Shown: positions 4,165 through 43,699 of the stretch, one piece after another
Layout: each line of letters starts with the position of its first letter
Position numbering within the stretch: position 1 is the first letter of the stretch
Source of the DNA: Nemertoderma westbladi
Lineage: Eukaryota > Animalia > Xenacoelomorpha
Length of the DNA stretch: 64,000 nt
Reading direction: 5' to 3'
Assembly (NCBI GenBank): GCA_032718475.1
Contig: JAUCBJ010002291.1
Span: 1-64,000 of the forward strand
The notes under the pieces: generated by a model
What the model was told of the DNA's origin: nothing
Databases searched by the model: none
The model's input: only the letters and a program-made list of their open reading frames with translations
Position numbers and translations under genes: made by a program

Positions 4165-5224
4165 AGTATACAATGGTTCGTACAACATTTGTGTCTACTG
4201 TTGACGGTGACACAGAACCATTTGAAGTTTTATGGGGTGTCCTCCAGGGAGAAACATTTGCACCATTCTTGTTCATAATTGTTGTTGACTATGTTCTACG
4301 CATGTCCTTAGATCATCATAATGATGATGGCGTGATGATAACTCCACCTACTGGCTCCAGAAGTCGAGGAAATCCTGCCAAGTACCTAACTGATCTAGAC
4401 TTTGCTGATGACTTAGGAGTACTCTCAGAATCACTAGAGGGAGCCCAACGGCTCCTCAGCTCATTAGAACATGCTGCTTCTAGTGTTGGTATTTTTATTA
4501 ACTCCAGAAAGACCAAAATTTTGACAGTTAACTTTGAAAGTCCTCAGCAAGTCTCTGATCGCATGAGCATAAGCTCAAAAGATGGTATGCTTGAGCATGT
4601 GGATGACTTCTGTTACCTGGGATCATGGATCCGGAAGTCAGGTGAGGACCTTCGAATACGTAAGGGAAAGGCATGGGCAGCCTTGAATAGGCTTTCCAGG
4701 ATTTGGAAGTCACCAAGAATTAATCGGACACTTAAGGTCCGATTATTTAGAGCAGCAGTAGTTCCAGTACTCCTCTATGGGAGTCCATGCTGGGCTCTAA
4801 CTGCTGAGGACACCAAATCTCTGGATGGCACATTCACAAGAATGCTACGCCGGGTTCATTGTGTCAAGTACAATGCACACATCTCCAACCAGACACTATA
4901 TAACATTGGAGGTGTCTCATTGGTTCCCCCAAGCTTCACACTAGAACAAAATCGCCTCTGCTTTGCAGGACATTGCTTTCGCTGTGAGGACCAACCAGCC
5001 AGTGCATAATCTTGTACTTTGGCAGCCTCATGGAGTGAATAAGCATGGTGGACAGACCATGACTTTCCTGAGACGCATCTTAAAGGACACTGGCCTTGAA
5101 GATGCGGATGATCTAGCAAATGTCATGGGTGATAGGGAGTTGTGGCGGTGCAATTTTGTCGATAAGCCGGCACAGCATTCTTAAAAGTGCAGCTGCAATG
5201 CAGCATGCCGATCCTAGTAGTAGC
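4165..5224 (+). mobile_element. 5'-truncated RTE LINE (second family), RT C-terminal half with (TAG)n tail
   Basis: ORF 4140-5009: GVLQGET.APFLF, DLDFADD, FCYLGS, LLYG; ends cctagtagtag; near-identical copy at 51967-52646. Confidence 0.88.
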
Positions 5225-7070: not shown

Positions 7071-10000
7071 TTATTTCTGGGACTTTTTCTTTTTAGGGGC
7101 TGGCTTGCGGTGTTGCATTGGTGGAGAACCATTATCTGGTAACGAAGATGGGGAACTTCGCACTTGTAGCCCCTCAGCGGCGGAAGGATGAATTTCCAAA
7201 GAGTCAGGAGGGGGTGCAACAGTCGGCACGGTCAGTCCACCAGTGGACGTTCCTGGTTGAGGTTCGATAACCGTGGCTGCCGCAGGAACTGAATGACGTA
7301 ATAACTTCATACCCTTTCGGAGTATTTTAGCCAGTGAAGATTTAGCGGAAGAGGGCAATGTGGATTGCACCGCTTTCTTGAGGTGGTGGTGACCAGTCCT
7401 TTAAGGGTCTGTGATGAAATCGTGACACCTCCTCGATCCGAAACATACTTTAAAGGTTTGACTGTCTCTTCCACAAGACGTGAAGTACGTAATGCGATCC
7501 AAAGTTTGTAGTAACTCTGGATTGGCGGAGACGAATTCGTAACCAAGGTTGGGGTCCTTACAAATAAAGTCAATGAGGGTATAGGTGGTTAAATCACCAG
7601 GGTTCATGCAGCGAAGGAATGTGCACACATATTGAACATTGGTGAGCTTCGAAACCGTTAGTAATAACTGGTAATCGGGGAGGTTAGAGCGTTGCGCTTC
7701 AATCGCGAAGGTGTAGTGATTGAAGGCAAAGACTCCGCAGTAGGAGCAGGAAGATTCATAGCAAATACGCGTGATTTGGTGTAAATCCACGGAATGTTCC
7801 CACAATTTGATATACTTCAGTAGGGATGTTTCATCATCCCTTTGTGTCAAGTCAAAGGGGCAGGAGACCAGGTAGTGTCCTTTCAATAAACATTTATCAC
7901 ATTGTTCTGAAAATGATTATTGAACAGTCCACAATACGGACAATGAAGCGGTAGATCAGAGCATTGGGAGTATGTCAGACAAGTTTCACCGTTAGGTGGA
8001 GTTTTATGAGCACGGGATCCGCATTGGATACAGCACTTCCGACCTTGGGATACAGCAGAATGAAAGGCAAATCGCATTAGGCGCTGCGGTCCAAGGTGCC
8101 ATGGTATAACAAACTCACCATCGTCATCTAACTCGGAAGTGGGATGGACTGATTTAAATTCTAAGACATTGTCAACCGCGGAGTCGTTTAAATAGGAAGA
8201 CAGCTGTTTGTCTGACATTTGTACAATGGAAACTGAATAGCCAGAATTGAGGATGGGCCGCTCCAGAACAGTGGAGTGTGAGTTTTGGACATACACATCA
8301 CTGAATATAGCAAAACCCTTTCTGTTTAAGTCTTCAAAGGCAGACAAATGCTTATTTACCTGTCCCTTTAGAGTGGGGTCACGGAACTGGCTGTTGATAC
8401 CAAAGAAGGGGAATAAGAACCTTAGAAAACATTCGAAACGTTGGAATTTCCCTTCACGATTAACCTTGGCAAGCTGGGTGCTGAGAAGTAATGGGTGGGA
8501 CCTCAAAGTCCTACTACAAGTATCCCCTACAGTACAAGTATGTCCCAACCAACCTGATACGGCAGAGTTCTTGTATATCATGTAAATAGTGAGAGAAGGC
8601 CGAAGAGGGACACTAATATTGGAATAAACAGCACCGGGGGCGGTTAAAGGACCATTGAAATAATAACGGGAATAATTATCACCATATAAGTTTAAATAAC
8701 GATTATACCGACCTTCCTTGAAATCCCATCCGAGTTCATGGAATGAAATGTGTCTGATGCCGGTACGTTCAGCTCTACGCATCCCACTGCCTACGCGTTT
8801 GTAAATAACGCGGAAGAATCCACATTCCTGGGCCCACGGGAGGATCATTTGCGTGTCCACAAAGGGGTAAGGGATGTCTAGTAAGGAGTCAAAGTCCTTG
8901 TACAAGTCGGGATATATCGCTGAACCGAGATTGCAGATCCTCTCGTTAAATAACAGGTCGAGAATGGGTTGGGGCAACATTGAAGGTTCAATGCCGAGCG
9001 AAGGGTGATGCTTGGTTTCGATAACATATTGGTAGGACTTCTCGAATTGTCCGTGTCGAGGTAGCATCTCCTGAAAGAACAGAGGAGTGAAGGAGGCATC
9101 AGTGCTTTGGGAGGTTCGCATGAATACATGGGTGGCTCCGGTTAAACCATGGATATGTATTAATTTGTGGAACTGAGTTCGCTGTCCGATACGGAACCTT
9201 TGTTGTCATATAGCATTATGCCATATTGGTGGATAACCTCAAGAGTATTGTTAAACTCGAGGTACACGACAGTTTCATCCACTTCCACCAGCATCCATAA
9301 GCTATCCAGAGATCCAATGGAGCCTCGGGCGATAACTACCGTTTTATAGCTCTGGACATTCTCTACTCCGGATTTTCCTTTCAACGTGTTAGAGAGTTTA
9401 TCTTGCTGAAATCGTACGTTGATGTTCCATTGAATCAATCGATCACCAATAAAATTGTCGAGATTTCGAGAAGGCGCAAGTTTATCCTCAATGGTTTGTA
9501 TGTTGAAAGGTTAACGAAAGGCATTCAGTTTGATTATATGATCTAGGTGTTTCTGCAGGGGTTCGATTTCAGTGATGTCGAGGGGATTAACCAAAGGTAG
9601 GAAATCCATACTGCAGGCGGGATCCTCGGGTTTCATAACATAATGTTGACTGAATAAGATGAAATCCGGGTGGTCCTGAATCCCATAGAACAGTGGATGG
9701 AGAGGATGTCTTTCTAGGTTTTTGTCCCGAATTATTGACTTGATTTGGTCAGTTCGACCAAGGGGAGCGATAATCCACTCGTCAGTTTCAGGGCTTTACA
9801 ATGTGGGTTTCCAACATCGGAGCGTCTGCGACTAAGTTTGGGTAAGAGATGTCAGTGTCGAAAGGTATCGTTCGGGTTTGACTGTAAGCGACACCGAAAC
9901 GCTTTATAGACCCAGATGGGTGAGCCTGTACTTTACTTTGGAACCCTTCCATGAGAGTTTGGACTGCGGGTTGGACCAAAGAAGCTAGCTCGTGTTCGTC

Positions 10001-11212
10001 GTTTAAACATTCACACTCTGTCTGTTCCTCTTCCTCACGAATACGTTGGCTTTCTTTCAGAGCTTCCACAAGGGAGATAGCCTTTCCTCGTTTGATTTCC
10101 TCTTATAGGAGGCGGACTTCGGATACGAATTCCTGTAATATCATCCGACGAACAACATCGAGTTTACCGGAGAGTTTAATGGGGTCATCTACACTGATGG
10201 AGTTTCGAAGGGCGTTAAGGAACTCGGTAACCAAGTAGTTACGATTAACCGTAGAGGTCCTGGTGAAAGTGAGAGGAGAAGTCCACATGGATTCCTCGCA
10301 CTGTAGTGAGCTTCCACGACCGATACCAACCATAGAGGGTTGGAGATGGGTTGGCTCTTCCTCTTGGTAATGGGGAGCTATCTGTTCCTCCATAACGAGG
10401 TCTCGGAAATATAGGTACATGATTTGGAAAAGCTGGGGTCGGTCGGAGATAACGTCATGGGCTTCATCATGGGCAACATCGGGTCGGGGGAAAACTCAGG
10501 GACGTGAATCATGGGTTTACGCACCTTGTTCACCTGGTTCATCGACATTGAATCGATTCTCTTCAAACCCTCCGTATGTATACTTGACGAAGCTGTGGCG
10601 GGAGCATCACCTACGTGGATGATTCACAGGTATAGTTGAGACCTGTTGGTTGGGGTAAGGACATTGACCGCATAAGTACCAGAGCTGAAAGTCAGTTTTG
10701 TTCAGAGGTGGAGACTTTATACCTGACTTGCTATACTCCTATGTCGTGGAAGGCATCGGGGAGGACTGGGAGCGGATGATCCTCGGTGAGATACATCATG
10801 GTATGATAAGGATTCTCGGTGTCATCATCCACGATGTCAACACAAATTTGACAATCATATTGCGTTCGGGTCTCGTTACTACGTTGCCATTCAACGTGTA
10901 GTTTGAACATGTTCATGTCCCATGCTGGTCATCGATGTCCCTTAAGTCCATGGTAAGGAAGCTGTTATAACTTCCATCGCGCTCGGTATATTTGAGAATG
11001 AACTCATGGTATTGTTGTTCGATGTTGCGCTGTTCGTTCAGGGTTCATCAACAGTTCGATATAATTCCCTGAAGGATCTATACACGGTACCATGCTCTGA
11101 GCAGGCTCGGTGGATTCGCCGGTGAAATCAGCCATCATCGTATCCATCATCTCCGTGTGCTATTCCCGAGAACATGCTTGACAGATGGGGGTGTCTTCGT
11201 GTATCGAGACAT
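7071..11212 (-). pseudogene. Element C accessory gene (frameshifted): unknown N-domain + DEDDy 3'-5' exonuclease-like domain + Cys/His zinc cluster + basic tail
   Basis: Stacked minus ORFs 10731-10916, 10378-10566, 10103-10420, 9788-10069, 9160-9438, 7883-9121, 7401-7886, 7071-7370. ExoI-like YGIMLYDNKG; ExoII-like LPQPILDLLFNERICNLGSAIYPD...FVDTQ; CIQCGSRAH, CPYC, CDKCLLKGHYLVSC (across a frameshift); ends PKKKKSQK. Homologous to ORFs inside LTR elements A and B. Confidence 0.72.
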
Positions 11213-11229
11213 GTGCGAGTTTGAGTAGA

Positions 11230-11275
11230 AGAATGTATATAGGGGGTAGGCGAGCGTCACCTCCCCAAAGGCGCC
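11230..11275 (-). promoter_or_regulatory. Putative internal promoter of accessory gene C (GACGCTCGC + TATA)
   Basis: Minus strand TTGGGGAGGTGACGCTCGCCTACCCCCTATATAC directly upstream of the ORF; matches TTGGGGTAGGCAGCGACGCTCGCTAGCCTAATTATAAG upstream of the homologous ORF in element B. Confidence 0.5.
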
Positions 11276-11547
11276 GAGACACGCCGTGACGCAGTCCCTG
11301 GTCAATCCCTAGTGGCAAGAATCGAGTTTGCAACTAGCAGCGGTACCGAAATATCGTGGCTATATGCTAAACTCTCATCAAGCCAGGGAGACGGGGGACT
11401 GGCCAGGAGCCATATTTGGTCTGCTATAATCCTCGGATTTATGAAGGGTTGGACAATTGCGTACACCTTAAAACTCATACTATTTGTCGGTTTTCCACAC
11501 TATTTAGCAAAAAGTCACAAAAACTGACTATTTGTAAAAAGTCTGGA

Positions 11548-12475
11548 CTATTTGTAGGTGGGTTTTTTTGAGTGCCTGTTACAAGGTCACCATCTATGAG
11601 GGGTGTGACTCCCGCCATCCAATAAGCTGTGTAGGTGGGTTTTTTTGAGTGCCCATTACAAGGTCACCACTGTCTATGAGGGGTGTGCCACCCGCCACCC
11701 AATAAGCTGTGTAGGTGGGTTTTATTGAGTGCCCGTTAGAAGGTCACCACCGTCTATGAGGGGTGTGACACCTGCCATCCAATAAGCTGTGTACATGGGT
11801 TTTTTTGAGTGCCCATTACAAGGTCACCGTGTATGAGGGGTGAAGGCACCGTGTATGAGGGGTGTGACACCCACCATCCAATAAGCTGTGTAGGTGGGTT
11901 TTTTTGAGTGCCCGTTACAAGGTCACCGTCTATTAGGGGTGTGAAACCCGCCATCCAATAAGCTGTGTAGGTGGGTTTTTTGAGTGCCCGTTACAAGGTC
12001 ACTGTCTATGAGGGGTGTGACACCCGCCATCCAATAAGCAGTGTAGGTGGGTTTTTTTGAGTGCCCGTTACAAGGTCACCACCATCTATGAGGGGTGGGA
12101 CACCCACCATCCAATAAGCTGTGTAGGTGGGTTTTTTTGAGTGCCCATTACAAGGTCACCGTCTATGAGGGGTGTGACACCCTCCATCCAATAAGCTGTG
12201 TAGGTGGGTTTTTTTGAGTGCCCGTTACAAGGTCATCGCCTATGAGGGGTGTGACACCCACCATCCAATAAGCTGTGTAGGTGGGTTTTTTTGAGTGCCC
12301 GTTACAAGGTCACCACCGTCTATGAGGGGTGTGACACCCGCCATCAAATAAGCTGTGTAGGTGGGTTTTTTTGAGTGCCCGTTACAAGGTCACCACCATC
12401 TATGAGGGGTGTGACACCCGCCAAACTATAAGCTGTGTAGGTTGGTTTTTTTTGAGTGCCCATTACAAGGTCACT
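11548..12475. repeat. Minisatellite, ~12 copies of a 76-80 bp unit
   Basis: Unit GTAGGTGGG(T)nGAGTGCCCGTTACAAGGTCACCGTCTATGAGGGGTGTGACACCCGCCATCCAATAAGCTGT recurs at 11554, 11631, 11711 ... 12437. Confidence 0.95.
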
Positions 12476-12782: not shown

Positions 12783-12933
12783 TCTGCTACTTTCCACCAT
12801 CATTAATAATAAATACAACTTCAACTGGACTGCTTTCATTGCTTTCTCTACCGACTCCTCCTCCCTAAGGAAATCTAGACGCAACCCTCATAACTTCCAG
12901 CTGCCCTTCCTCCATAAGTCCACCTCTTAGCAA
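12783..12933 (+). repeat. Left copy of ~151 bp target-site duplication of the RTE
   Basis: Directly repeated at 16279-16429 with a handful of mismatches. Confidence 0.9.
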
Positions 12934-15900
12934 AAATTCATCAACTAAATAAGTTATTGAGGGCTATAGCGCCTAGGGCACCATTGAAGGCAAAGGCTTG
13001 ATATGCATCTGCATTAGAGATGATACAAGCCCTGCCCTGTCTATACTGGATGCTCCTCTACCAGTGTTAGGTAACCTAACCCAGGAGGCACACTTGGTTC
13101 AGGGTATAACAAAAGGACCCCTACAGTCGGCAGCAGGGCTGTAGGCCATGGATAGGCAGAAGGTAATCAACCAATGGCTAGACATGCTGACAAGGTTGGC
13201 GGAAGGTAATCAACCAACGGTGACCTGCTGCAAAGACGCTTGTAGGAGTTGCGACCACAAGCGGTTTACTCCCGCAACTGAAAGATATGAGTATGAGAAC
13301 CCTCCAGGAGAAATACCGGCTCGGTCGTCGCCCGGGTCAACAAGGACTGCATCCCTCAGTGGTACACCATCCTGGGGTCGATAAATTGGCTACTGGAAAA
13401 AAAGACAGAGAAGAAAGAAGAACCAACCTGTTGAAATGTAAAAAGACACTAAAGATTGCTACAATGAACGCACGCACGCTGAAAGCACGTACCAAACAGG
13501 GTGACATGGTCGCTCTGGCATTGGAATATCACATCGACATCATCTGCATCCAAGAACATCGGATTTGTCATGAAGACACTGCCATGAAGTACAATGACAT
13601 TGGAAATGGATGGACGTTAGTAACAAGCTCAGCAGTAAGAAACTCGGCCAATGCATCAATTGGTGGAGTAGGAATTCTGCTAAGCCCATTTGCACTTAAG
13701 ACCCTAAACAACATCGAATCTATAAATTCCAGGGTTATGATCGCAACATTTGATGGGAATCCCAAGACAACAGTTATATGTTGCTACAGTCCAACCAATG
13801 CCTCAGAGCCAGAACAAGCAGTCAAGTTTTATGAAGATCTGACTGGACTTGTTAAGGACATTCCGAAACACAATGTTAAAGTCATTGCTGGTGACTTGGA
13901 TGCGCAAATTGGCCCAGAAGACATCAAGGGTTACACCTATAACACCAGTTCTAACAGAAATGGGTACTTTCTTTTGGACCTAATGGAAGAATGTGAATTG
14001 ATACCAACAAACAACACATTCGAAAAGAGTAAGGGGAAGCTATGGACCTTTCAATACCCTAATGGAACCAAAGCACAACTGGATTACATCCTTATAAACA
14101 AAAAACAGCTCGTTCAACCTAATTGTTTGAACCACAGAATTGTGACTGCAGAGATTAGACTCAATTTAATAGCCAGCAAACCCAGGACAAGCAAGCAAAT
14201 CATCTATGACTGGGAGAAACTCAGAACTGACAATGCTGTAAAGGATGCTTATACAGTAGAAGTTCAAAAACGCTTTGAAGCACTTCAGTCAATGGATGAA
14301 GACCAATCCACTGATTCAATATACCAGAATATAATAACAGCCCACAAGGAATCAGCTAAGAGGCATATCCCCCAGAAACCCAAATGAAAACAGTATGTGC
14401 CATGGCAAAACTCTGAGGTACTTGTAAGAGAGAAGATCTTAAGATAGCCTACAAAGTTAAAACCGAACAACCAACAACCGAAAACATTAACAAGGTTGAG
14501 AAAGCTAAGGACGATCTTAAATTGGCCTACAAGATCAGCTAGGAAAAGTACATACGGATAAAACTGAAGCAATTACAACTGCTCACATACAGCAACAATC
14601 AAGACTTACCTGGCAAACTGTAAATGAGATATCTGGTCGGAAAAGTTGTGCAAAGGGGCGCCCCAAACCCAATAGTCCTGAAGAACGTGTTGGGAAGTGG
14701 AAAAATCACTTCAGCAACTTGCTTGGGCAGCCACCAAACATCGAGGTCAGCCCTACAAGGAAAATATATGACAAGACACTACCTATAGAAACAGGGGACT
14801 TCACACCTGCCGAACTCCAAAGAAGCATTAAAAGCATGTCCAATAATAAAGTGAGTGGATTAGATGAAATCCCAGCGGAGGGCTAAACAGACCATTATTG
14901 AATGTTTTGCATGTTAAAAGGGGAAAAGCCACCACCAATTTGGACTAAAGGTCAACTAAAGCCTCTCCCCAAGAAAGGAGACCTCGGCATACCAACAAAT
15001 TATTGTGGGATCTGTCTGCTTGTGGTAGCTGCCAAAATATAAAATAAAATGATTCTATATAGGATTAGGCCTCACATAGAGAAACTACTGTGTAAGAGCC
15101 AAAACGGATTTCGACCAAGTAGATCAACAATAGCTCAGATACTTGCACTACGGAGACTGATTGAAGGAATTAAGTCAAAGAATCTCCCCGCAGTCATGAC
15201 TTTTGTGGACTTCAAGAAGGCATTCGACTCCATCAAATAGAGGTAAAATGCTTGAAATCCTAAGAGCTTATGGAATACCAGAAGTAATTGTTGCTGGCAT
15301 TGGATTGTTATATTGTGACACAGAAGCGCAGGTACTCTCACCAGATGGTGAAACTGAGTTTTTCTCAATCCTGGCTGGCGTACTGCAAGGTGACACATTA
15401 GCACCATTACTATAATTGTGCTGGATTATGCAATGAGGACAGCCACAAAGGGTGAAGATCTGGGATTCACACTTCAAGAACGCAGAAGTAGTAGATATCC
15501 GGCAACTACAGTCACAGACACCAACTTTACGGATGACATCGCCCTGCTCTCTAATACACTAGCAGATGCACAGCTTCTACTAAATAAAGTGGAGAGGGCT
15601 GCTAAGGAGGTTGGATTGCATATAAATGCTACCAAGACCGAATTCATGACCTTTACTGTTGATGGAAACTTGACAACCATTGATAATAATCAACTAAGGA
15701 AGGTTGATGACTTCCAGTACCTTGGATCATGGATAGAGAGTAGCAAAAAGGACGTAGAAGTTAGGAAAGCAAAGGCTTGGGTAGCTCTATCAAAAATGGA
15801 TACCATCTGGAAATCAGATCTCTCCAGGCACCTGAAGACTAAGTTCTTTCGAGCCACGGTGGAAAGTGTATTTTTATACGGGGGTGAGACCTGGACACTG

Positions 15901-16278
15901 ACTAAATCACTTGAATAACGAATTGATGGTTGCTACGTAAGACTACTAAGGGCAGCCCTAAACATCAGCTGGAGACAACACATGACAAACGCCGAGATTT
16001 ATGGTACAATACCACCTGTATCAACCACCCTCCGTGAATGCAGATTAAGATTCAGTGGGCACTGCTGGCGAAGTAAAGACGAGGTCATACCAGATCTACT
16101 TCTCTGGCAACCAACTCATGGAAAGCGTAGTCGTGGACGACCAGCCATAACATATATAGAGCAACTTGAAAGGGATACTGAACTTAGTAGAAACGAAATT
16201 GCGACAACTATGGAGAATCGGGAAGCCTGGAAGGATCTCATCTCCACTGTCCGAGTTCGCTCGACCCAGTAGTAGTAG
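12934..16278 (+). mobile_element. Full-length RTE-clade LINE (APE + RT), inactivated by stops and frameshifts
   Basis: APE motifs in ORF 13287-14387 (IATMNART, IQEHR, GGVG, CYSPT, AGDL, LDYIL); RT motifs QNGFR, FVDFKKAFDSI, GVLQGDTLAP, FTDD, YLGS; C-terminal GKRSRGRP; (AGT)n tail; ~3.3 kb. Confidence 0.93.
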
Positions 16279-16429
16279 TCTGCTACTTTCCGCCATCATT
16301 AATAATAAATACAACTTCAACTGGACTCCTTTCATTGGCTTCTCTACCGACACCTCCTCCCTAAGGAAATCTAGACGCAACCCTCATAACTCCCAGCTGC
16401 CTTTCTTCCGTAAGTCCACCTCTTAGCAA
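16279..16429 (+). repeat. Right copy of ~151 bp target-site duplication of the RTE
   Basis: Starts immediately after the (AGT)n tail; matches 12783-12933. Confidence 0.9.
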
Positions 16430-17214
16430 CATTTCTGGTACTGATCTCACCGGCTAGCCAACCTACTACCACATGAAGTCTACTTCACATGACATACAGG
16501 ACACAGCGATCTGTACTGGAACTTCTTCGTCTCCACTTATATGGAACGGAACCCCTGCACCTGGAGAATTTGATACATGTGTACAGCATGCTCAGCCAAA
16601 CCACCAGACCTCCGACAGCATCTTAACTGACAGCACCTTGATATCTTGACAGCACTTCAACTCAAAGTTGTATATTTACGGGCCCTTAAAACCCTTTAGC
16701 TTGTGCTGTAAATTTATATATATTATTATGATTATTATAATGTAGCAAGACCTAAACTCAAGAATCTAAAGCAAGCAAAGCATAGACAACACTGTTTTCA
16801 TCTGTTATTATTGTTATAAACAATGTCGTTTTTATCCGGAATCATGGCTGTCAACTTCATAGCATATCCACCACCACCCACCGTGATCCCACCAATAACC
16901 TGCTGCTCTGTTTTTTTGGAGCAACTGGAGTAACTCCGCCTATTCATTGGTGAGAAGATTCGTTCCTGGTGTATTTTGTGTTGTCATTAATTTTCCAAAG
17001 GCTTCCCGATCTATATGGGTAAGGAGGACTGCAATGTCAAACTGAGTTTGTTAGCTGCAGCTTGTTCGCTTGTTTTGTCATCGATTGTCATCGATTGTTT
17101 TGTGAGTTTAGCTGGTCACTGGTCACTAATTTAGAGATAGAAAAAGACACTCAAATTTAATGAGAGATAGTAATATTAATGAATGGAAGATTCTTTTAGT
17201 CTCATTAAGCCAAG

Positions 17215-19080: not shown

Positions 19081-19713
19081 CGTGACGGGATCCACCGGAG
19101 TTGGCAGTAATGAATTCCGACCGGTGTGTGTTATACGCGTCGCCGCATCCGTAGGCTGCTAAAGGTGTAGTCTGGATCTATATAGTTTCCCGAAGGCCGT
19201 TCAAATAACTGAGTTTTACTGTCAGTGTTTATAATCGCAGAATGCAATAATAGCACAGTCTGAATATAATAGCACAGTAGTGACGACGGTTAAAACTGTT
19301 CCGGTCTCACAACTGCATAGGACCCAACTGAACCAGTAATCAATAACTGCAATGGTTATATTATTATTAACACATACTAAATTAGCTCTACACTACTGAG
19401 TGGCCTGAGTGTCCAATAGATGCGCTCTAATCACTCCCAATGTGCTCTCCCACCCACCATTGGCTTAACCTGATTAATTGTCACCTCGCCACTCAATGTT
19501 GCCACTATCCCCACGTGCTAGCCTTACTAGCCTGTTTGTCCCTCTAAGGTGGTTTGACCTCTCAACTCTCCCTGTGGCTTATTACGGCGTATATCGCCTT
19601 AGTTGGTTGTGAGGTGACAATATTATTGCTAATGTCACCTCGCCAACTATAATTGGTAAAATGCTACTAATCCCATTTTCGGTGGGTAGTGCAGGGAATT
19701 GAATCCGCTTACA
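19081..19713 (-). repeat. 3' LTR of element A
   Basis: Direct repeat of 29961-30586; begins TGTAAGCGG on the minus strand right after the PPT. Confidence 0.92.
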
Positions 19714-20402
19714 CTCCCCTCCATGATATATTCCCGGTGAGAAGATAGCATCAACCTTAAGTGCGCTTCAATTCCACCGGAATCCAATCTAATATTGGAT
19801 GTGGGGTGGAATTCTCTTCTCAGGGTTGGCTTTCCAGGTCGGCCCCCATGGGTTTGTTATCACTACCCATCCTTGGCACACCTGCGAGCTAGGCTGTACC
19901 AAGGCATCTGGCATCTCTGTTTTAATCGATTGCCCTCACTCCTCACACAATTTTACCTCTCGGACTTTGTTGTCCCTTCCTCTCTCGCCAGTCCCTTGGG
20001 ACTCATCCCCCTCTATGCTCGCTCCCCACACTTGAATCTCGCACCTCTTTTACTTCTTCATACCCTAACACCTCCTCCCCATACTCCTCCCATACTCGAC
20101 CCGTTTTCGCTGTCACTCTCCTCACACTCTTATCGGGTCCCACGCATGTGTACAGCATGTCAGTGAGATCCGTCGTTGTCCCGTCCTCCTGTTTCAGTCA
20201 ATTAGTCGCCAGTCCCAGTAGCTAATTGGAAAAGGTTATATTCGACTATGATAGGTCTATACTGATTATATATTGGGTATGTATATTGATTATTTTACGT
20301 ACGTACATACTAATTGCACTTAATTAAATTGCACTTAGGAGTTTGTACTGCTGCGTCCATGTGGTGCCTTCCAGGCACATTGACATCCCCTGTCTTGGAG
20401 TT

Positions 20403-23002
20403 CTACATTGCTCCTCCCGCACCCTCCGGGAACCATCTAATTTCCTTGCCCCTATCATCATCCTGTCTGGACCGCTTCCTCCCTTCCTGTTTACCCTTGA
20501 GGATACTCATCCTCGCTGATACCATCTTACCAAGCCCCATTGTTGGTTCTTTGGGTGTGGGTGTTATTAAGTCCTGGTATCTCTTCGAAGGTGGTCCCAC
20601 TGAGTGTCCCTCCTGTCTCCCTCTGGTAGCGTCCCACAAGATCATCTTCATCGCACGCGGCATGTGTTCCCCCAGAAAGTCCCTGAATTCGATCCTATTT
20701 TCTGTCCAGATATCTTTGGGTATGGATGACCCCTCTGTACAATGTCGCTGTTGCTACCTCCTGATACGTGAATGGTAGTCTCCTCTTGGTGATCTGCTGG
20801 TGGGCTTCTATATTGATGTTGAAGAAACCCCACCGGAATTACTGGGCCATCATCCTTTGTCGTGTCATGACTCCGATGTCGGCCCACACCTCGAAAATCT
20901 GGAATTTCTCCTCATCGTCCATCCTCAAAGTGCCCTCTAAACTTGCACTTCAAACATCTGTTGTGCAACCTCGGACACGCACCCTTCTTGTGAGTAGACT
21001 CGTGGCAGTAAAGACACGCCATCCCCTTCAGGAAACGGTATAGATAGTTCTTTTGCTGATGGGTTAATCTCCCACAGCAATCGCAACCGTGCATCATTGT
21101 CTCCCGCCCCAAGTCATCCTTGGCTCCGCGTGGCCTCCTGGGTCTATGGAGCCGCTGGTAGGTAAACATCTGGATGTTGTCTTCTCTATCCATGTCGATA
21201 TCCTATGCCAACCTCGGCATCGTTTCTCCAAACACTATTCATGGTGCCGTCCCCGGCTGCTCACCCAGTCTCTGGTACTCGCCGCAAAGTCCATGGCCGG
21301 CTCCCTGTGCTCCCAGGTCCTCTTACCGGGTTTCTCCCAGAAGGCTCTCGCCCCGGTGGCCGTCACCACTCTCCCATCCACCCAGTCTGTGTCTGAGTGG
21401 CCGATCCTTGCTATCGGTGGCATAGACCCGAACTCGTCATCTTCTTCTTCCCCTGCCGGGGGCGCAATCCCCTCTATCGGTGGCATCCCACGAACTCGTC
21501 CTCTTCCTCTTCCCCTGCCGGAGCGTATCCAAACCCAGGAGCCCAGTTAATCCACTGTGTAAGGGACACAGTGGATTAACTGGTATCCGCCCATAGCCTT
21601 TCACCCTTCTACCTCCCTCGGTCTCTTCCTTCTGATGTCACCCTCAGAGCCTGCTGGCATGGGCATTCTTTACAACCCCGATGTTGACTGTGTCGGTGTC
21701 TCTTACATCCAACCCATCGTCCCCCAGCCAAAACTCGTCCGAGGTCTCCGACAACCCATCGTCTAAGTCCTGGGCTTCGAACTCATACTCCTCTCCCCTT
21801 ATATCCGCTTCTCTGCCCGCTGCCTCCCTTCTCTCTCTCCTGGCGACTTCCACTAGTCTCCTCTCCTCAACCCTATCCACCTCCAGTTTCCTCCATGTGT
21901 CTACCTCTCTGTCCACTAGATGTCAGGTATTGTAATATACCGACTCGCCCTTCAGCCCTGGGTGGTCTACAAGACCTTCTAGGGCCACCTTAAAGGCTCT
22001 CCTGTGATTCGGAGGTGCTCCTGATAGTAGAAACGCCGTCGGCTCCCTGCCCATAAATAGTCACCATAATGAATAGGTTTAATAAATCTATGATTATCCA
22101 ATCCTCCTGTAGGATATATCTCTTCTGATATATCTTTATCGCTCCCTTCCGGAAGTGGTATAGTTTCTCCTTTCCTGGTCTCGCTCCCCACTTGAGCGAG
22201 TTCGCAAGTTCTGCTCCATATTCTTCCCGGAACTTGTTCCAGTCCATCGGCTTGTGGCAGACGAGTCCCATCAGTTTTCCCATTGCCACGGCTCCGCTAT
22301 TTCCCGTGTTGTCCACCAATCCCAATCCCTCTGGTTTTGTCATAGCCATGTAGACTACCTGCATGTCCAGAAGATTGGAGGTTCCAGGTCCAATAATTCT
22401 ATCCGCGTCGTTGCGTATCGCCGATCCCACCTTGATCATAGTTTTCTGTCTCACTAGCTCCTGCACCGCCTTCAGTAACCGGTTTAACTTCGGCCCGCTT
22501 TTCTTTCTGTAGGTCCCTAGGTCGAATAGAAAAATATCTCCGTTCGGCACTGCTAAGTGCAGCAATATAGTTCTACCTGATCCTCCCGACCCCCTTCTCG
22601 AGCCCTCGTCATCCTCCACAGTCCCTTCGTCGTTTAGGACCATGTATCCACCCCTCTCCACAGAATTTACAAATCGCCTCCACTCCTTAAACGGTGGTTC
22701 CCTCGGTAATTTGGTATCCCGAACTTTGCCTCGTCCCCCTTTACAACGTAGCGAAGATGCTCGTCGATCGCGTTGTCCAATGACGGTGTCCTGTAGGTCC
22801 CGACCATTCGCCGCTCGTGCATCTCCCTAAACTGATCCTGTAGCGCGTGCACTTTGTGACCCTTTGGGAGTGGTTTGTAGTATCCCTTCGTCTTTTTTTC
22901 CGGATGCCTCTGCATGAAATCCACTAGCAACTCCTTCCTACTCTTCTCCGATTTCCTCTTCTTCACTAGTTTCACCGCCATCACGAATCTGCACACTCTC
23001 AC
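20403..23002 (-). pseudogene. Element A accessory gene (frameshifted): DEDDy 3'-5' exonuclease-like domain, acidic linker, Cys/His zinc cluster
   Basis: GGYMVLNDEG (ExoI-like), ILLHLAVPNGDIFLFDL, VQELVRQKTMIKVGSAIRND...LLDMQ (ExoII), YQKRYILQED (ExoIII-like); then CDCCGRLTH...CLYCHESTHKKGACPRLHNRCLKCKFRGH...FEVWADIGVMTR. Lies between pol remnant and 3' LTR, same strand as gag. Confidence 0.75.
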
Positions 23003-23382
23003 CTAACTGGTGGGGCCTTAGAAAGGCTCAGTTTAAGTAAGAGGGTCGTCAAACAGAATGTTATTAGTTCCGATCAGTGATGGCCTACCTCCTTTGCTGT
23101 GTTTTCCTGTAATTTCGTACAAAATTGCATTTCTAAATTTACAATTTTGTCCATTGCTTTTTATTAATGATTCTAGAATTCATTCCCCAGTTGCCATAAT
23201 TTGTTAATTTTTACTATTATTTATATTCCCCCTTACATGTGCTATTATACTATCTGCCATCTGATTACTTACTTAAGTAACCCATCCCAGTAACAGTTTT
23301 CTTATTACCGTACTAGCTTCATACCAGACAGTTTCCTGGCTCTGTAACAATAACCTAGGTCTGCAGGGGCTAGCAGGCAACC

Positions 23383-23905
23383 TAGGCGCCCTCAGTGCCC
23401 ACAAGTTTATGGTACTGTGTACCCCTCTACTATGGTATGCATACATACCCCCTCTCAATTCCTCACGTGGCGCCCTCAGTGCCCACAAGTTTACGGTACT
23501 GTATAACCCTCTATTACGTTATGCATACCCCCCCTCAATTCCTCACATGGCGCCCTCAGTGCCCACAAGTTTACAGTACTATGTACCCCTCAACTACGGT
23601 ATGCGTACATACCCCCCCTCAACTCCTCACATGGCACCCTCAGTGCCCACAAGTTTACGGTACTGTGTACCTCTCAACTATGGTATGCGTACATACCCCC
23701 CTCAACTCCTCACGTGTCACCCTCAGTGCCTACAAGTTTATGGTACTGTGTATCCTTCTATTACGGTATGCGTACATACCCCCACTCAACTCCTCATGTG
23801 GTGCCCTCAGTGCCCAGAAGTTTATGGTAATGTACCCTTCTGCTATGGTATGCGTACATACCCCCCCTCAACTCCTCACGTGGTGCCCTCAGTGCCCACA
23901 AGTAC
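23383..23905. repeat. Tandem array, ~6 copies of ~83 bp, inside element A
   Basis: CTCAGTGCCC(ACAAG) recurs at ~23391, 23476, 23556, 23639, 23723, 23806, 23888. Confidence 0.93.
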
Positions 23906-24061
23906 TGCGTATGTAAATTAGGTATGTTGGTACATTATTGTACCCATCTGATGTATGTAATTGTAACTACATATACCTATTTATTATATACGTTGGTACA
24001 TCCGTACCCATCAGATGTACATAATGCCTACCTGCAGCGTACCTTGGTACTAGCGTTTTAC

Positions 24062-25700
24062 TTATTTTATTTTATTATTTTGTTTTTGTGGGAAGGGTGT
24101 ATCTCCCTCATTCCCACCCCCCTCAGTCCATCTTATTGGACGACTCAACAACCTAAGGGCGATTCTTCCAGCAGGCAACTCTCCCACTGCCCCCCTGTAG
24201 GTCCTAGGTCCTCTTATTCTTCGCCCCACTCTCCTTTTCGATTTCAAATCTCTTGGATCTGACTTTCCTTTCTCCTCCATCCTAAAATCGGGTCCGTCAC
24301 CTCACTGATCTCATCATGGTCCCCTGGCAGCAAAATGCTACCCTTCATCTTGTCGTCACTTGGTGGTAGAATGCCGCCCTTCATGTCATCCTCACTGGTA
24401 CATGCCACCTTTGCTGGCCTCCCCCTCAATATGTGCGCCGGCGTTAAAGCCCCCGATGACCCTTGGTAATCCTTCGGTACGCATAATGGTTTACCATTTA
24501 ATGCCCCCTCGCACTCTGCCAGCCCCATGTGCAACACGTCTCCTCTAACTTTCCTATCTCCATTACCACCCTTCATTATTAGCTCCTCTCCCTTTGGATT
24601 AACCCTCTTACATCCTCCCCCTCTCCACCTTGTCTTCTTATTCGACCTCCTCTCTATCGGTATGCTTCTTAATTAGACCAGCGTCTCTTCCAGACATCTC
24701 TCTGGATATCTCGCCATCCACTCTTCTCCATCCTCATACCGATACTTGCCAGGAACATCTATCTCCCATCCCATCGCCTCTAGGTCCTGTGCGTTGAACC
24801 CATTCTCCTCCGCCCACTCCCTTGCTGTGACTTGTCGTCCTGTCTCCTCTACCAACAGTACTTCTCTGGATTCATCCTCCACCCTTTCCACTATACGTGG
24901 ATGCAGATCCATACCCATCCCTGACTCCTGGTGTCCTTCCCCGGGCTGCTTCTCATATGGGACCTCCCCATCACCCATCTTTGACTTCTGCTCGGGCCAC
25001 TTCCCATATAGGACCTCCCCATCGCCCGTCTTTGACTTCTGTTCAGGCTGTTTCCCATATGGGACCTCCCCATCGCCCATCTTTGGTTTCTGCTCTATGT
25101 CCTCAACAGTACCGGACAGCATGCATCCAGATGTTTCGGATACGCCAAACGGTGTCCTCGTCTTCATTGGGCCAGTGAGCATCCACCCAAATGGCGCGAG
25201 AATGGCCATCGGGTCTCTCTCTCTGTCATCGCTGAAAATGGTTTGTAGTCTCTCGTGGGCCGTCGGACAGTCCATGCTGACTATTAGAGACACTTTTGGG
25301 ACATCCAGTTCCGGTACGGAAAAGTCGATGTCTTCCAGGTACTTGTATTGCTCAATCTCGATCTTCGTAGGTCACCTGGCGTTAATGTTGATTGACTCTA
25401 TTATCTGAATGGTTTCGATTGTAGCCCCATAGGTGCACCCTGGCTTTATCGCTGCAATCTCGCATCGTCCCCTCCTCATCTTCATGACCTCATCTTTGCT
25501 TGAGATCGTGGTCACTGCTATTTTACTTGGCCTGGTTCGTAATCCTATCTTCTCGCCACCCAACTCTCTGTTAGCGTGAATGCTGCTCCACTATCGACCA
25601 ACATTAGTGTTGTAACCGATAGCTCATTCTCCCCTATTATTCTCACTGGTACCACTCCAAGTAGTACCATTCCCCTCTTCTTTGCTCCCATTGTGCTTGT
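24062..25700 (-). pseudogene. pol: Element A collapsed pol: aspartic protease + integrase C-terminal remnant, RT/RNase H absent
   Basis: VVPVRI...LMLVDSGAAFTL; LIVSMDCP...AILAPFGWMLTGP; LAECEGALNGKPL...LTPAHILRG; LPAGRIAL. No RT or RNase H motifs between them. Confidence 0.75.
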
Positions 25701-28700
25701 CGCCATCGTCTGGCCTCCAGTCCCATCAGTCTCGTCATATTTTACCGGCGGTTCCTGGCACTCATCCTTCCTGTGTCCTCCTACCGCGCATCAATGACAT
25801 AGTCCATTCTTACCCGTATAGGCTACCCGATCTTGTTTAAGCAACGCCTGCCAGTGTTTACAACCGAACCTATGTAATTGGCATTTGTATTGGGGGTTGT
25901 AGCGTTCCTTGTATAGTGCTTCATGTATTGCGCTTAGATTCATATCTAGCGGTTTAGTGTTTTGGTTACTTGGACTCGCGGCCTGCTGAGAGTATTGGGT
26001 TTATATTTGTTTGTGTTGTTACTTTGCTTCTGTCCCTGCCACGGTGTGGCTCTACTTCCATCTCTCTGTGGACTAGAAGTCCCCTGCGTGGCCGCATACA
26101 GTAGCAACTGCCTCACCTTCGGAAGTACATTTGCCGCCCTATGTTCGGGTTTGGGTTGGCTGTATTCGGTTTTTGGTGCCTTTCCTAGACTGTCCTCACT
26201 ATAGACTGGATCTGTTATTAACTCCACCTCGTAGTTAAGGAAGTTCGACATCTCCTCCAACCCTGGCTCCGCACCTTTCTTTTCTCGGGGCGATTCGGCC
26301 CACCCACTATATTTTTGTAATTGTCCAATGAAATCCTACAAAATTTGGGCTGTTGGTGAAACAACTATAGATGATGACTACCAAACCTTAAAAAGTTAAA
26401 ATTTCATAATTTTGATGAAAAATAAAAGTATTCCCAGGACAAAATTACAAAATTTTTCGTTTTCTAAAAACTAATAGTGTGGCAGTGTTGGCTAGATTTA
26501 GTAGGTTTTTCAAGACGCTTACATAGTTGCATACAAGCTTACATACTTGTATAGAGCATTAGAGTGATCCAAACCAATAAAAATAAATAAAAATAGCCCA
26601 AACATAAATAATTACTAAATCACGAATGACTTTGTAAAATTCGAAAATTTCAAAAAATTTGGTGCTGGAGACCAAATTTTGAGGTGGCACCCACATCGAA
26701 AAGTAGAAATTCAATTACAACATCGTTTTTTGCAAAAGATGCGGCATTAAATTTGGCTAATTCTCAATAAAAATTGGGCCGGTACGTAATGTGGTTGCAT
26801 AGTTACAGCAACTAAAAACTAGGAAGGGGCCGTTTTTGGTTGTGTATATTGCGGATACTGTAGTGGGGGAATGTCACCCTGTCCCCTCCCTCCCCCCACC
26901 GATGTTATGTTTGGTACTGAGGTTGATGTCATTATATTCGGGCCCATACACCTATCTGCAATACCCCCCCCTCCCCTGGATATATATTGTATCCATGCAT
27001 GTTACAGTCATACTGATGTGCAGGTACCAGTATAGGCCTATCAGGTTCTTGCCTACTAACTGGTATGTATGCCGCAATCTCCGGGTCCAATCCCGGCATC
27101 CGTACTACCCTATTGCCTACACTATCTCTTCCAGCATGGCCTATAGTATGTGCAGTAAGGCCTACAGTATGTCCTGCAGTCTGCCTGTGTCCTTCCGGAT
27201 CGAAGTTTAATCTTCTTGAATATTCCAAGAACTCCTCCCCGCGACTACCATATCCTCGATTGGTAGCTACATTCCAACGGAAGTTTCCCTCCAATCCCCT
27301 CTTCTGTCTTCTTCCTCGTACCGGTACACTCTGTACCCCTCTCCCGGTGTGTGGTATATTTTGCCAGGTTGTGTTTCTCCGGGTGACAGCAATCTCCCAA
27401 AGTATGACCCCACCGGCTCTCTCTCTCTCTCTCCACTTCGACTATCGACGGTTCGCTGTCCGTCCTTTCTCTCTGGTTGCCCGTAGCAACACTTCCTCGT
27501 CCCTCCTCACTTCTTTTGATTTCAGCATAATGTCCTCCTTCATGAGATCTCGTATCGACCTCCTGGATGAACTCCACTGTTCTTCTTCCGCCTTCCGAGT
27601 GGGCTCGATGTTTCCTCGTTTGGCCGCGCACCAATGTCCCTCCCTCTGCCCGGTTGGACATCCCCGTGGATATTCGCAGTCCTCTTATTATCATCTGTCA
27701 TCGGGTGCCACGGTTCATTTATCTCACCGCGTGCATTATCTGCCGACGCTCCTGGGGCCTCTGTTGCCCCCCCCCCCCCCCCTTTCATCCGTCGTCGGGT
27801 GCCACGGTTCACTTAACTCACCGCGCGCATTATCTGCCGACGCTCGTGGGGCGTTTGTTGCCCCCCACCCCCCCCCCCCCTTTCCTCCATCTTCGGGTGC
27901 CACAGTCCACTTAACTCACCGCGTGCATTATCTGCCGACGCTCATGGGGCGTTTTTTGACCCCCCCCCCTCTCGTCATTAATTGGTTGGTGTGGGGTGCC
28001 CATAGCCCCCACCCCCCACCCCGTCACCTCTTATCTCGCCCTCATGCCCATGTTCCCCTCCAGTCGACACATTAGTTCTATCTTCACTGGGTTTATTTAG
28101 CCGAGTTCCTCCCTGCGCAACTGCGTGGCTTTGTAGGCCTTCTCTAGGCATATTGCCTGTTTCCCCTACGTTTATATTAATTGTACCGCCACTAGCTTCA
28201 CCCTGTTGATTTATAACGTCGTTATTTAGGTTATATTGATTAATCTCGCCGGGATTATTTATTATATTATTATTTGACGTACCCGGATTGTTATTTAAAT
28301 TATTCAAATTATTTTGTTCACTGATATTTACATTATTATTTAAATTATTTTGTTCACTGTTATTAAAATTATTACATAAATTATTTTGTTCACCGTTATT
28401 AAAATTATTACCAAGTAAAATATTATTTCCTGCAAGAAGACTAACGGAAGACTACGGTACTATTAATATTAACGTTTTCACCAAAAGTATTATCATTACC
28501 CCCCCCCCCCCCCCCCCCCCCCGCCCGTACGGTCACACCAGTCTTGGGTCTGTCGTCCGGTACCTGTAAGTGGGGTATTAATAAAGGTTTCCATCACCTC
28601 TGGTTCCTCATAAATACTTCCCGAACCAGCCTCGCTCTCTGATAAACCCATTTTTGCCAGTTCTAATCGGCGCTTTTGCTTCGCCTGATACTGCATTAAC

Positions 28701-29866
28701 CCCTCAACCGGGTATGCATATCATCCCCCATTCGTTTACCCGCCCTCTCTCTCTCTCTCTCTCCTCTCTAACACTCTGGTCGGCTAACTCTGCCTCTCTC
28801 GCCTCTCGTTCTCTACGCTCGTTCACTTCTCTCTCAATCCTCTCAGCTTTCCTCGCTTCCCACTCTTTGCGCTCATTCTCTTCTCTCTCAATCCTCTCAG
28901 CTTTCCTTGCTTCCTGCTCTCTGCGCGTGTTCTCTCCCCTCGCCTCTTGTTCTTTGCGCTCACTCAATTCTCTCTCCTCCCGCTCTCTGTAGTTTCTCGC
29001 CACCCTCTCGGCCCTCTCTTTACACTCTTTCGCTAGTTCCCTCTCCCTCTCTAGTAACGCGGTCCCCTCATCCAGCTGTCTCTCTAATTCCTTTTGATCC
29101 AGTGCGACAATGTCTAGTTGACACGCCAGATCTATCTCTAACACCCTTCTTGCTTTCGCAGAGGATGTAGCGGACTTTTCGGTTGCGACGCACTCCCGTC
29201 GCCTGCTCATCCTACTAATTTTCATGTGCTTACTGGGATTCCTACTAACTGACGACACTGAATCTTCGGGGTTGACCTCGGATTCGGTGTCGTGCGGGTC
29301 TGCCCATCCCACTAACTTAATCCCCCTCGCATCTACTAGATAAGGCCATACGTACACCACACTGGCCTCCACCACCTCGGATCGCCACAATTCGAACAGT
29401 TCTGTGGCGACCCCCCTCGTCTTCTCACTTGCTAGTTCCCCCTACCCAAATCGGACTAGGTAGCTAAAATGTTTTTTGCACTCACCTAGCCTCTGGTACA
29501 ACTTGGGCTGGTCTACCTTTCTTCCCTCTCTAGCGTCCTTCAACAACCTCCTGGTGGCAGTGTACCCTCGTTGTAGGTGATCGCTCATCCCGACGTCTTC
29601 CTCCTGGACTTGGCCTTCCCTCCTCGTCCAGCGCCGTACCGTTAGCCCCACCATTGCCGTTCCGGTGGGCCGTTCGCCGCCCTCAGCCACTGGTTGACTG
29701 GTGACTTTGGTACCTCGTTTGCCGCTGTGATCTCGCATCGACTCGCTCTCCTCTCTTCCTCGTCCCTTGTTGGCGAATCCAGTATGGCGGGCCGGTACTG
29801 CCTCGTCGCTGCTTCCCGAATCGTCTCATTTCTGTCACTCGGGATTCGCATCTTGTGTCCGCTCAT
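25700..29866 (-). pseudogene. gag: Element A gag, fragmented
   Basis: E/R-rich coiled coil (28704-29390), Asn- and Gly-rich low-complexity tracts, BEL motif FLNYEVELITDPVYS (25946-26260), degenerate knuckles CQLH.../LCH*CAVGGHRKDEC. Confidence 0.72.
26295..26830. mobile_element. AT-rich DNA-repeat fragment inside element A gag
   Basis: Sharp GC drop; AAAATTTGGTGCTGG...AAATTTT...CGAAAA motif shared with the 50590-51290 repeat family. Confidence 0.6.
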
Positions 29867-29960
29867 GTTGGCGTCATTGTGGTCACAGTTCCTTTAGGTT
29901 GTTGGGTTGTTGGTAGTTTTAACTCGGCAGTTTTAACTGTGAGTTGATTGGCGTTTTAAC

Positions 29961-30586
29961 TGTGACGGGATCCACTGGAGTTGGCAGTAATGAATCTCGA
30001 CCGGTGTGTGTTATACACATCACCGCGTAGGCTGCTAAAGGTGTAGTCTGGATCTATATAGTAGGCCGAAGGCTGTTCAAATAACTGAGTTTTACTGTCA
30101 GTGTTTATAATCGCAGAACATAATAATAGCACAGTCTGAATATAATAGCACGGTAGTGACGACGGTTAAAACTGTTCCGGTCTGACAACTGTATAGGAAC
30201 CAACTGAACTAGTAATCAATAACTGCAACGGTTATATTATTATTAACACATACTAAATTAGCTCTACACTACTGAGTGGCCTGAGTGTCCAATAGATGCG
30301 CTCTAATCACTCCCAATGTTCTCTCCCACTCACCATTAGCTTAACCTGATTAATTGTCACCTCGCCACTCCCTGTTGCCACTATTCCCACGTGCTAGCCT
30401 TACTAGCCAGTTTGTCCCTCTGAGGTGGTTTGACCTCTCAACTCTCCCTGTGGCATACGGCGTATATCGCCTTAGTTGGTTGTGAGGTGACATTATTATT
30501 GCTATTGTCACCTCGCCAACTATAATTGGTAAAATGCCACTAATCCCATTTTCGGTGGGTAGTGCAGGGAATTGAATCCGCTTACA
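29961..30586 (-). repeat. 5' LTR of element A
   Basis: Minus strand TGTAAGC...CGTCACA; direct repeat of 19081-19713; gag starts ~100 nt downstream. Confidence 0.92.
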
Positions 30587-33526: not shown

Positions 33527-34804
33527 TGTAAAAGCTTTTGCGGAATTGCCCGGTTATTTTTCCCCGTAAAGTACTCTGTAGTTGGTTTAGCAGGCATAAA
33601 AGGCCGTGTCATTGCTGTACCGGTGTTTTTAGGGGACATAAAAGCTATTTCTTCTGTATGTGTACTTTAGAGGACATAATTAGCAATTCTATGACGCAAC
33701 GCCCTAGATCCTCTTGAAACAGTGTCGTTACTATGACGACAGCTAACGGCTGAGCTTTACATGTGTAGCTTGCCCGGAGCCTTGCTTGGTTCTTTGTTCT
33801 GCTCAGCTCAAAATGACGACATCTATCAGCTGTGTCCACTTGGAGCTTTTTGCCATTCGACCAATCAGAGATTCCCTCTTTGTGTAAAAGCTGTACAGCA
33901 GAATTACAGGATTCAGTACTGACGTTTCCCCCACGCCTAGAACACCGGCCGGGGAATGTTTTCTGACATTAGAGCGTCTTTAATTATAAGATCATCAAAC
34001 GGTTATCTCGGTTTTGCACCTCGGTCTTGGTCAACTCGGTTAACTCGGTACTGACTACAGCACCACGGTTTTGCACCTCGGCATATGATTAAGCACCCTG
34101 ACGTAAACTGCTTTTCGCCGCATTATTTACTGCTATTTACTGTGTTGTTAATTGTATCGTTCGTTTACATATTATTATTGGGAAGAATATTGATAACGAT
34201 CCAAAAACCCAATCATCTTGATACACTAAGGTTAGAGAGACCGGTTACATATAACAATTTGCGACATACATTATCGTGGTTTGTAGTGAGTTCAATGCTA
34301 CTTAATAGGCCCTACAAATGTCGGTTGTTATTCTCTTTATATATGATTAAAATCAGTGAATGTCGGCAATTCAGTGTGCAGTTGTGTGCAATAGTTTGCG
34401 TGTGCTTGACCGAGTAACAAAGCATTTCCTAAAGAATGCACTTTGGTGATCTATAAGACATACCGTTGTGTATAGTGTAAGTCATAGCTCTGTTTAAATA
34501 GATAGAGCGCCACGTCCTAAAGGAACTGCTAATATTTCCCAAAAGGTGAATAATATTTGTCAGAGATTATATATTAACGATCAATCGAATAGTACGGTAG
34601 GCCTGCACCGCAATCAAATTAAAGCATCCAAATCCAGTCTCCCGGGTATATCCATCGGGTGAATGGTCGCGCACAGACTGGCTTTGGCTAATGTTAGAAT
34701 TATTATAGGTGTTCAATACTTGTCATAGGCTGGAGTAGATTTATAACCTAGAAGACATATAGATTTGGCGGGTTAAACTGCCAAAGGTCTTAAAAGCGCG
34801 AACA
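33527..34804 (+). repeat. 5' LTR of element B (1278 bp)
   Basis: Starts TGTAAAAGC, ends GCGAACA; contains CCAATCAG (33861) and TAATTATAAG (33981). Confidence 0.95.
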
Positions 34805-42310: not shown

Positions 42311-42345
42311 TATTAATAAACTCATATATAGCAGATATAACGGAG

Positions 42346-43623: not shown

Positions 43624-43699
43624 TGTTTAGAGTATCTTTATATTTTAGAAACTGTGATTTTTATATTTTATAGACTAAAATCCCATTTTCTGGGAGCGG

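Follow-up and report, generated by a model that had tools for sequence, protein, structure and literature searches.

Element A, an LTR retrotransposon copy in the 64,000-nucleotide stretch of Nemertoderma westbladi DNA analyzed here (the window), is read by us, with a probability of roughly 0.6, as a non-autonomous and likely BEL/Pao element whose third gene (ORF3) encodes a predicted WRN/EXD/Mut-7-type 3'-5' exonuclease together with three CCHC knuckles, acting on RNA. Element A is a decayed copy of a multicopy LTR element that has no reverse transcriptase (RT). A preliminary description had placed a coding region of about 2.6 kb, on the sense strand of the element, between a pol remnant and the 3' LTR; this placement is confirmed, on the minus strand, from the integrase tail to the polypurine tract.

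Anatomy of element A and its missing reverse transcriptase

Element A measures 11.5 kb, inserts included. Its features are given below in its own 5' to 3' order, followed by a second member of the family, with the basis of each assignment in parentheses; element B is a BEL/Pao element elsewhere in the window.

29961 to 30586, minus strand: 5' LTR (94% identity to the 3' LTR, K2P, target-duplication flanks)
28700 to 29830, minus strand: gag-like 5' region, charged, coiled-coil-like and broken (translation; role inferred from position)
26340 to 26930, no strand assigned: AT-rich unrelated insert within gag (composition, high contig depth)
25171 to 25900, minus strand: gag zinc knuckle, aspartic protease (LVDSGAA, 25581-25601) and post-protease motif PFGWMLTG (motifs, collinearity with element B)
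24361 to 24600, minus strand: integrase C-terminal tail, ECEGALN...LTPAHILRG, with LTPAHILRG at 24421-24447 (motif taken to be of BEL/Pao type)
23385 to 23903, no strand assigned: tandem array upstream of ORF3, period about 82-84, 6.3 copies (repeat analysis)
22670 to 22981, minus strand: putative N-terminal ORF3 segment, basic, ATG at 22981 (111-codon open frame; putatively joined to the exonuclease frame)
21993 to 22826, minus strand: open frame with a WRN/EXD/Mut-7-like DEDDy exonuclease domain, core about 22080-22700 (profile, Atlas, motifs)
21240 to 21990, minus strand: putative ORF3 linker, charged-helical, acidic and Pro-rich, with stops and frame changes (translation; tentative frame assignment)
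21543 to 21583, no strand assigned: perfect hairpin of 18 bp with a 5-nt loop, within the ORF3 linker (z -3.1, 0 of 200 shuffles)
20915 to 21085, minus strand: three tandem CCHC-type zinc knuckles (motif search and shuffles)
20403 to 20753, minus strand: putative C-terminal ORF3 segment (116-codon open frame)
19714 to 19722, minus strand: polypurine tract, GGAGGGGAG (precedes the 3' LTR)
19081 to 19713, minus strand: 3' LTR (direct repeat of the 5' LTR)
59063 to 60910, plus strand: second, truncated family member (copy 2), with gag end, protease, integrase tail and an RT-less junction (77.5% identity to element A over 1946 columns)

The LTRs were recognized as direct repeats in a self-comparison of the window; they read TGTAAG...GTCACA on the minus strand, align over 636 columns (K2P 0.0515) and are flanked by GTTTA and GTTGA, which agree in four of the five letters of a target duplication. 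With LTRs of 626 nt and an adjoining 9-nt polypurine tract, element A resembles the Belpaoviridae, which have LTRs of 0.2-1.2 kb and a polypurine tract, and it resembles them also in its gag-protease-integrase order and in the position of its third gene; however, the RT/RNase H/integrase core and the tRNA primer site of that family are missing (PMC8742986). The gag-like region (28700-29830) had no Pfam match, and the insert behind it has an A+G content of 0.46 and a GC content of 0.35, in contrast to A+G values of 0.58-0.68 elsewhere within element A.

RT, RNase H and the integrase core are absent from element A, including what had been called its pol remnant, and no YxDD motif occurs in any frame across the interval from protease to integrase tail. 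This interval, from the protease motif to the tail, measures 1154 nt in element A and 1092 nt in copy 2. Because both copies have the same junction, we regard the loss of these domains as a trait of the family and not as an accident of element A. Copy 2 stops at the integrase tail, and no ORF3 is visible behind it.

The assignment to a BEL/Pao lineage, also made in the preliminary description, is highly likely to be right as to origin. It draws on PFGWMLTG and the integrase-tail motifs, which we take to be of BEL/Pao type, and on a weak but collinear similarity of the gag-protease pieces of element A to the DUF1759-positive gag-protease frame of element B (four scores, reached by 3, 1, 3 and 11 of 500 shuffles). 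In Pfam, copy 2 matched Asp_protease_2, a generic protease, at an E value of 4.6e-5; neither copy matched DUF1759, DUF1758 or another BEL-specific family, and the integrase tail (24361-24600) had no match. Since RT, RNase H and integrase are absent from both visible copies, element A is filed as a likely non-autonomous BEL/Pao derivative and not as a full member. A search for a longer homologue of the copy 2 protease came back empty; three metagenome loci obtained with this query matched over 21 residues outside the protease and were taken as chance.

The leader that follows the 5' LTR begins with GTTAAAAC and not with the TGG expected at the start of a tRNA primer-binding site. The same string occurs three times in the leader (window 29900-29961, minus strand) and has its complement at LTR positions 413-422, which hints weakly at self-priming; complements of 8-10 nt to the LTR are reached by 19-155 of 1000 shuffles.

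Other mobile sequences were observed in the window. In element B (34001-44841, plus strand), a young BEL/Pao element, the LTRs are 99.5% alike and an upstream frame of 607 codons precedes the DUF1759 gag-protease frame of 612 codons; no RT frame of at least 120 codons lies behind these two, making it another apparently RT-less BEL/Pao form. A piece at 5-195 is similar to the upstream frame of element B (83% over 30 residues) and is directly followed by a LINE RT frame. Remnants of LINE-type RT and endonuclease lie at 88-1317, 4131-5009 and 13224-16272, two of them with DUF6451, and the last is flanked by 157-nt direct repeats (12783-12939 and 16279-16435). At 53107-57838, a large inverted repeat pair (about 690 nt, 80%) surrounds inverted arms at 54478-54763 and 56002-56293, resembling a nested or foldback DNA element.

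ORF3 and its exonuclease-like domain

ORF3 extends over about 860 codons, from the ATG at 22981 to 20403 on the sense strand of element A, and is broken. LTPAHILRG lies on one side of it, with an AT-rich spacer and then the approximately 84-nt tandem array in between, and the polypurine tract and 3' LTR lie on the other. As read from the translation, its plausible coding pieces are separated by at least five frame changes, with stops in the linker, in agreement with the earlier remark that the copy is frameshifted. The longest piece is a stop-free frame of 278 codons (21993-22826), a length matched in 0 of 1000 dinucleotide shuffles of the region, which closes with a stop at 21992. All the exonuclease motifs quoted in the preliminary description are present in this one frame: YMVLNDEG (22623-22646), ILLHLA (22551-22568), IFLFDL (22518-22535), IKVGSAIRND (22407-22436) and LLDMQ (22359-22373).

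The zinc motifs that had been listed proved to be three tandem C-x2-C-x4-H-x4-(C) knuckles in one frame (21044-21085, 20975-21016 and 20915-20956), of which only the middle one keeps all four ligands in this copy; three such knuckles within 60 residues were found in 0 of 5000 shuffles. About 320 codons and several breaks separate them from the exonuclease frame, and the segment behind them (20403-20753) was searched against Pfam without a match. An exonuclease-like frame and zinc motifs, as proposed earlier for a large fusion, are both present; given the frame changes and the stops in the linker, a single fused protein is putative. We lean towards this single protein and towards its translation from a separate message, in the manner of env. 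At the hairpin in the linker (21543-21583), some contigs of other copies are shorter; the structure may have arisen as a local inverted duplication or may serve as an RNA signal.

Two tests, independent of each other but modest in strength, support the reading of the domain as DnaQ/DEDDy-like, of the WRN/EXD type; Pfam, PDB sequences and homologue searches do not. In the ESM Atlas, 25 of 30 matches to the exonuclease frame were PF01612 clusters (score 0.93, 173 of 256 features, recognition 3171) and the remaining five were unnamed eukaryotic clusters; shuffled proteins reach at least 0.9 there in 4-10 of 100 cases. The second test was a profile of 30 bacterial WRN-type exonucleases, the seed of which matches the human WRN exonuclease at an E value of 6e-15. 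Three exonuclease tiles came first among 2304 six-frame tiles of the window, at approximately 10.1-10.2 bits (E 0.065), the next tile having 5.2 bits, and the score was reached by 0 of 2000 shuffles and not by the reversed sequence. The signal is modest and comes mostly from the ExoII segment, and the hhalign probability was 6.5%.

In the alignment with the WRN-type rows, the ExoII aspartate, a QLA-like strand, a DL strand, a tryptophan and a Q-x2-Y helix are in register, and K90, G92, D98, W171, Q192 and Y195 are invariant across all 30 rows. A model built on these rows (pLDDT 61, core 61-81, about 50 at ExoI) matches EXD2, Nibbler, RICE1, Egalitarian, TbRND and WRN; this comparison is circular and shows compatibility only. 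The single-sequence model of the frame had a pLDDT of 36 and no DnaQ match in two fold searches, and is unusable.

The PF01612 match for which the preliminary description had proposed a HMMER check was not obtained: ORF3 pieces matched no Pfam family, and no exonuclease even at an E value of 10. A bacterial RNase D-like profile (40 sequences) missed the domain, and a PDB sequence search gave no match beyond three chance rows. No homologues of the exonuclease were found among 5.8 billion proteins of similar length or 1.84 billion representatives, nor in metagenome contigs, viral contigs or plasmids; 301 bacterial genomes gave weak scattered matches in 30, and Rfam gave two weak rows below the gathering score. 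On the Atlas and profile comparisons, a DEDDy (DnaQ-type) fold is very likely for the ORF3 domain.

Whether the domain would also cut is a separate matter, and from its residues the chance of catalytic activity appears about even. The ExoII aspartate follows K-x-G, as expected (K90, G92, D98). ExoI had been read as N-D-E; these residues are indeed there, after the hydrophobic strand of the single-sequence model, but the motif is ambiguous, as a second candidate, TVEDDEG (22602-22622), reads D-D-E seven residues on and is the one used by the alignment and by the model built on it (pLDDT about 50), without the usual hydrophobic residue before D. The ExoIII candidate, KRYILQED (22101-22124), reads Y-x3-E followed by D in place of Y-x3-D.

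EXD1, Egalitarian and Exuperantia are DEDDy-fold proteins that bind RNA or a partner without cutting. ORF3 could likewise be a real, family-borne gene whose product retains the fold for binding, to RNA or to a host partner, and does not cut, which we consider rather unlikely. N-D-E on the predicted first strand, Y-x3-E at ExoIII and the atypical surroundings of the alternative D-D-E all point in this direction, as does the presence of Egalitarian and EXD1 among the fold matches, in a search biased by the alignment. However, with an LTR K2P of 0.05 and many breaks, the window copy is decayed and single changes in it are to be expected; it retains the ExoII aspartate, and an acidic residue both at ExoI and at ExoIII; and the ORF3 proteins of bdelloid rotifers have an altered but apparently intact DEED motif, as given in the available part of PMC5408684.

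At 7400-12474 (minus strand), a 77-80-nt tandem array precedes a long, broken ORF. By eye this unit has the same plan as ORF3 of element A, with exonuclease-like words (MLYDNKG, 9196-9216; CNLGSAIYPD, 8906-8935; FVDTQ, 8849-8863) and Cys/His knuckles (7875-8032), and with no LTR pair within the window. As an exonuclease, 7400-9510 was not confirmed: the Atlas gave 0.82 to DUF707, no homologues were found, its WRN-type profile score was reached by 110 of 2000 shuffles and its similarity to the ORF3 domain by 30 of 1000. The array of this unit is unrelated to that of element A.

ORF3 among the copies of the family

The ORF3 segment is not unique to the window copy, since many diverged contigs cover it at a depth like that of gag and protease. 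All 30 bins of element A were covered by host contigs in four of four runs, with 11,750, 11,065 and 16,685 aligned contigs in the three deep runs. Most aligned contig records are 80-95% alike, from which we conclude that the host carries many diverged copies. Contig depth is a rough measure; by this measure the seven ORF3 bins had medians of 3824, 3845 and 4020 in the three deep runs, compared with 3226, 5190 and 5076 for the four pol-remnant/protease bins.

Fourteen of the 40 variants listed (of 2600 rows) fall in 20403-23002. Five of the 14 lie in the exonuclease frame, and all five are third-position, synonymous changes, clustered in 31 nt. At the other nine, two of which are in the first knuckle, the window copy stands apart from nearly all aligned contigs, a pattern that points to decay confined to this copy. 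The family is likely to carry the ORF3 segment regularly, as a gene under selection with a DEDDy fold.

Alternatively, the 3.8-kb block formed by the array and the exonuclease/knuckle region might be a separate mobile unit inserted in the LTR element, or might be confined to one sub-branch; we consider this quite improbable. One contig of run X2 (depth 300, 22 nt on its short side) joins 20174 to 24004 and skips the array and ORF3, so that forms of the element without the block probably exist, by deletion or by later insertion of the block. Six letters at 20168-20173 recur at 24000-24005, a repeat that a deletion or a spurious short alignment would explain as well as an empty site. Depth in the bins next to the block (20003-20403 and 24013-24413) is approximately 1.8 to 3.7 times the ORF3 median, and among the contig pieces listed none connects ORF3 with the pol remnant or with the LTR. 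At 7400-12474, an array and ORF of possibly similar kind lie in the window without an LTR pair, and DEDDy domains are also carried by Dada DNA transposons (PMC3706591, available part). On the other hand, the block shares the strand and the purine bias of its host element (A+G 0.60-0.64 in ORF3, unlike the AT-rich gag insert), its depth is like that of gag and protease, no inverted repeat of at least 60 nt is present at its ends and its position is that of ORF3 genes.

That the exonuclease likeness is due to chance, the frame encoding an unrelated accessory protein and the knuckle segment being perhaps a separate gene or a duplicated gag piece, is very improbable, since, against blank standard searches (Pfam, PDB sequences, homologues), a single-sequence model without a DnaQ match, shuffled proteins that also score 0.9 or more in the Atlas and a frame that stops at 21992, two independent methods name the same family and the order and spacing of the motifs fit from strand 2 to the last helix.

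Predicted role and related systems

In the reading that we favor, element A would be transcribed from its LTR and make Gag and protease, with an autonomous relative supplying the RT and integrase for its copying and integration. Such a helper is suggested by the lack of RT and by the copy number of the element. ORF3 would be made from its own message, and its predicted exonuclease domain and CCHC knuckles may act jointly, holding RNA and trimming or protecting its 3' ends. By analogy with Trypanosoma brucei RNase D (TbRND), the substrate may be single-stranded RNA 3' ends. In TbRND, CCHC fingers behind the DEDD domain bind RNA and raise cleavage, and the layout, a DEDD 3'-5' exonuclease followed by tandem CCHC fingers, is that of ORF3. 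However, TbRND is a host mitochondrial gRNA-trimming enzyme with four fingers and a linker of about 28 residues, according to the available part of PMC7797062. ORF3 has three knuckles and a linker of about 320 codons and is on a mobile element, and the likeness is one of layout.

The closest parallels on mobile elements are in bdelloid rotifers, where, as the preliminary description had noted, LTR retrotransposons (Juno, Vesta) and Athena/Terminon elements carry a DEDDy ORF3 (PMC5408684, available part); the rotifer ORF3 and Terminons are also treated in the accessible parts of PMC5718144, PMC6431247 and PMC6338049. As in element A, the Juno and Vesta gene is in the env position downstream of pol and has an altered catalytic motif (DEED), with activity and role unproven there too. 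The rotifer lineages (Juno, Vesta, TelKA and Mag) have a full pol, whereas element A is likely BEL/Pao and has no RT; for the rotifer protein, only a Cys-His-Cys motif is noted in the part of the source available, in contrast to the triple CCHC cluster and approximately 860 codons of ORF3, a comparison made by description (PMC5408684). The Dada DNA transposons of Laccaria and Ectocarpus likewise combine a DEDDy domain with zinc fingers on a mobile element; unlike in element A, the domain lies within a DDE transposase and has all four catalytic residues (PMC3706591, available part).

Known BEL/Pao third genes are env-like glycoproteins (PMC8742986). In the available text of PMC3118150 and PMC13524379 they are named only as env-like, and the word exonuclease occurs zero times in the main text of either; for BEL, PMC3985635, as far as available, covers only RNase H. 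An exonuclease as a third gene in BEL/Pao was not known to the preliminary description, and no such element was described in the literature searched; Repbase, Dfam, GyDB, subscription journals and supplements, which were outside the scope of this search, could hold such elements.

As to role, we tentatively favor counter-defence, in which ORF3 would act on the small RNAs that the host directs against the element, or on their precursors. The reasons are that small-RNA 3'-end factors (Nibbler/Mut-7 and EXD1) belong to the nearest structural class and that a family without RT has still kept ORF3. Processing of the element's own RNA inside particles ranks next and is unlikely. A form of either role in which the protein binds RNA and does not cut is likewise rather unlikely. 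A broader proposal is doubtful: that a BEL/Pao lineage has stably kept an active WRN/Mut-7-type exoribonuclease of about 860 residues, which grips RNA through three CCHC knuckles and suppresses small-RNA silencing, and which was selected even after RT loss. The RT-less family would then supply particles and counter-defence and borrow its copying enzymes, and the far-diverged unit at 7400-12474, of like plan, would mark an old feature of the elements of this genome.

What can be drawn from these results is limited in that the window copy is dead and the exonuclease match is remote. Third genes of LTR retrotransposons other than env are poorly understood, and it is an open question whether elements in animals encode a counter-defence against small RNAs. 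With a DEDDy gene in a BEL/Pao-type family, this cargo would be known from a second LTR superfamily besides the rotifer elements, which would suggest repeated capture, and its retention in a family without RT would show that ORF3 brings a benefit independent of the element's own RT.
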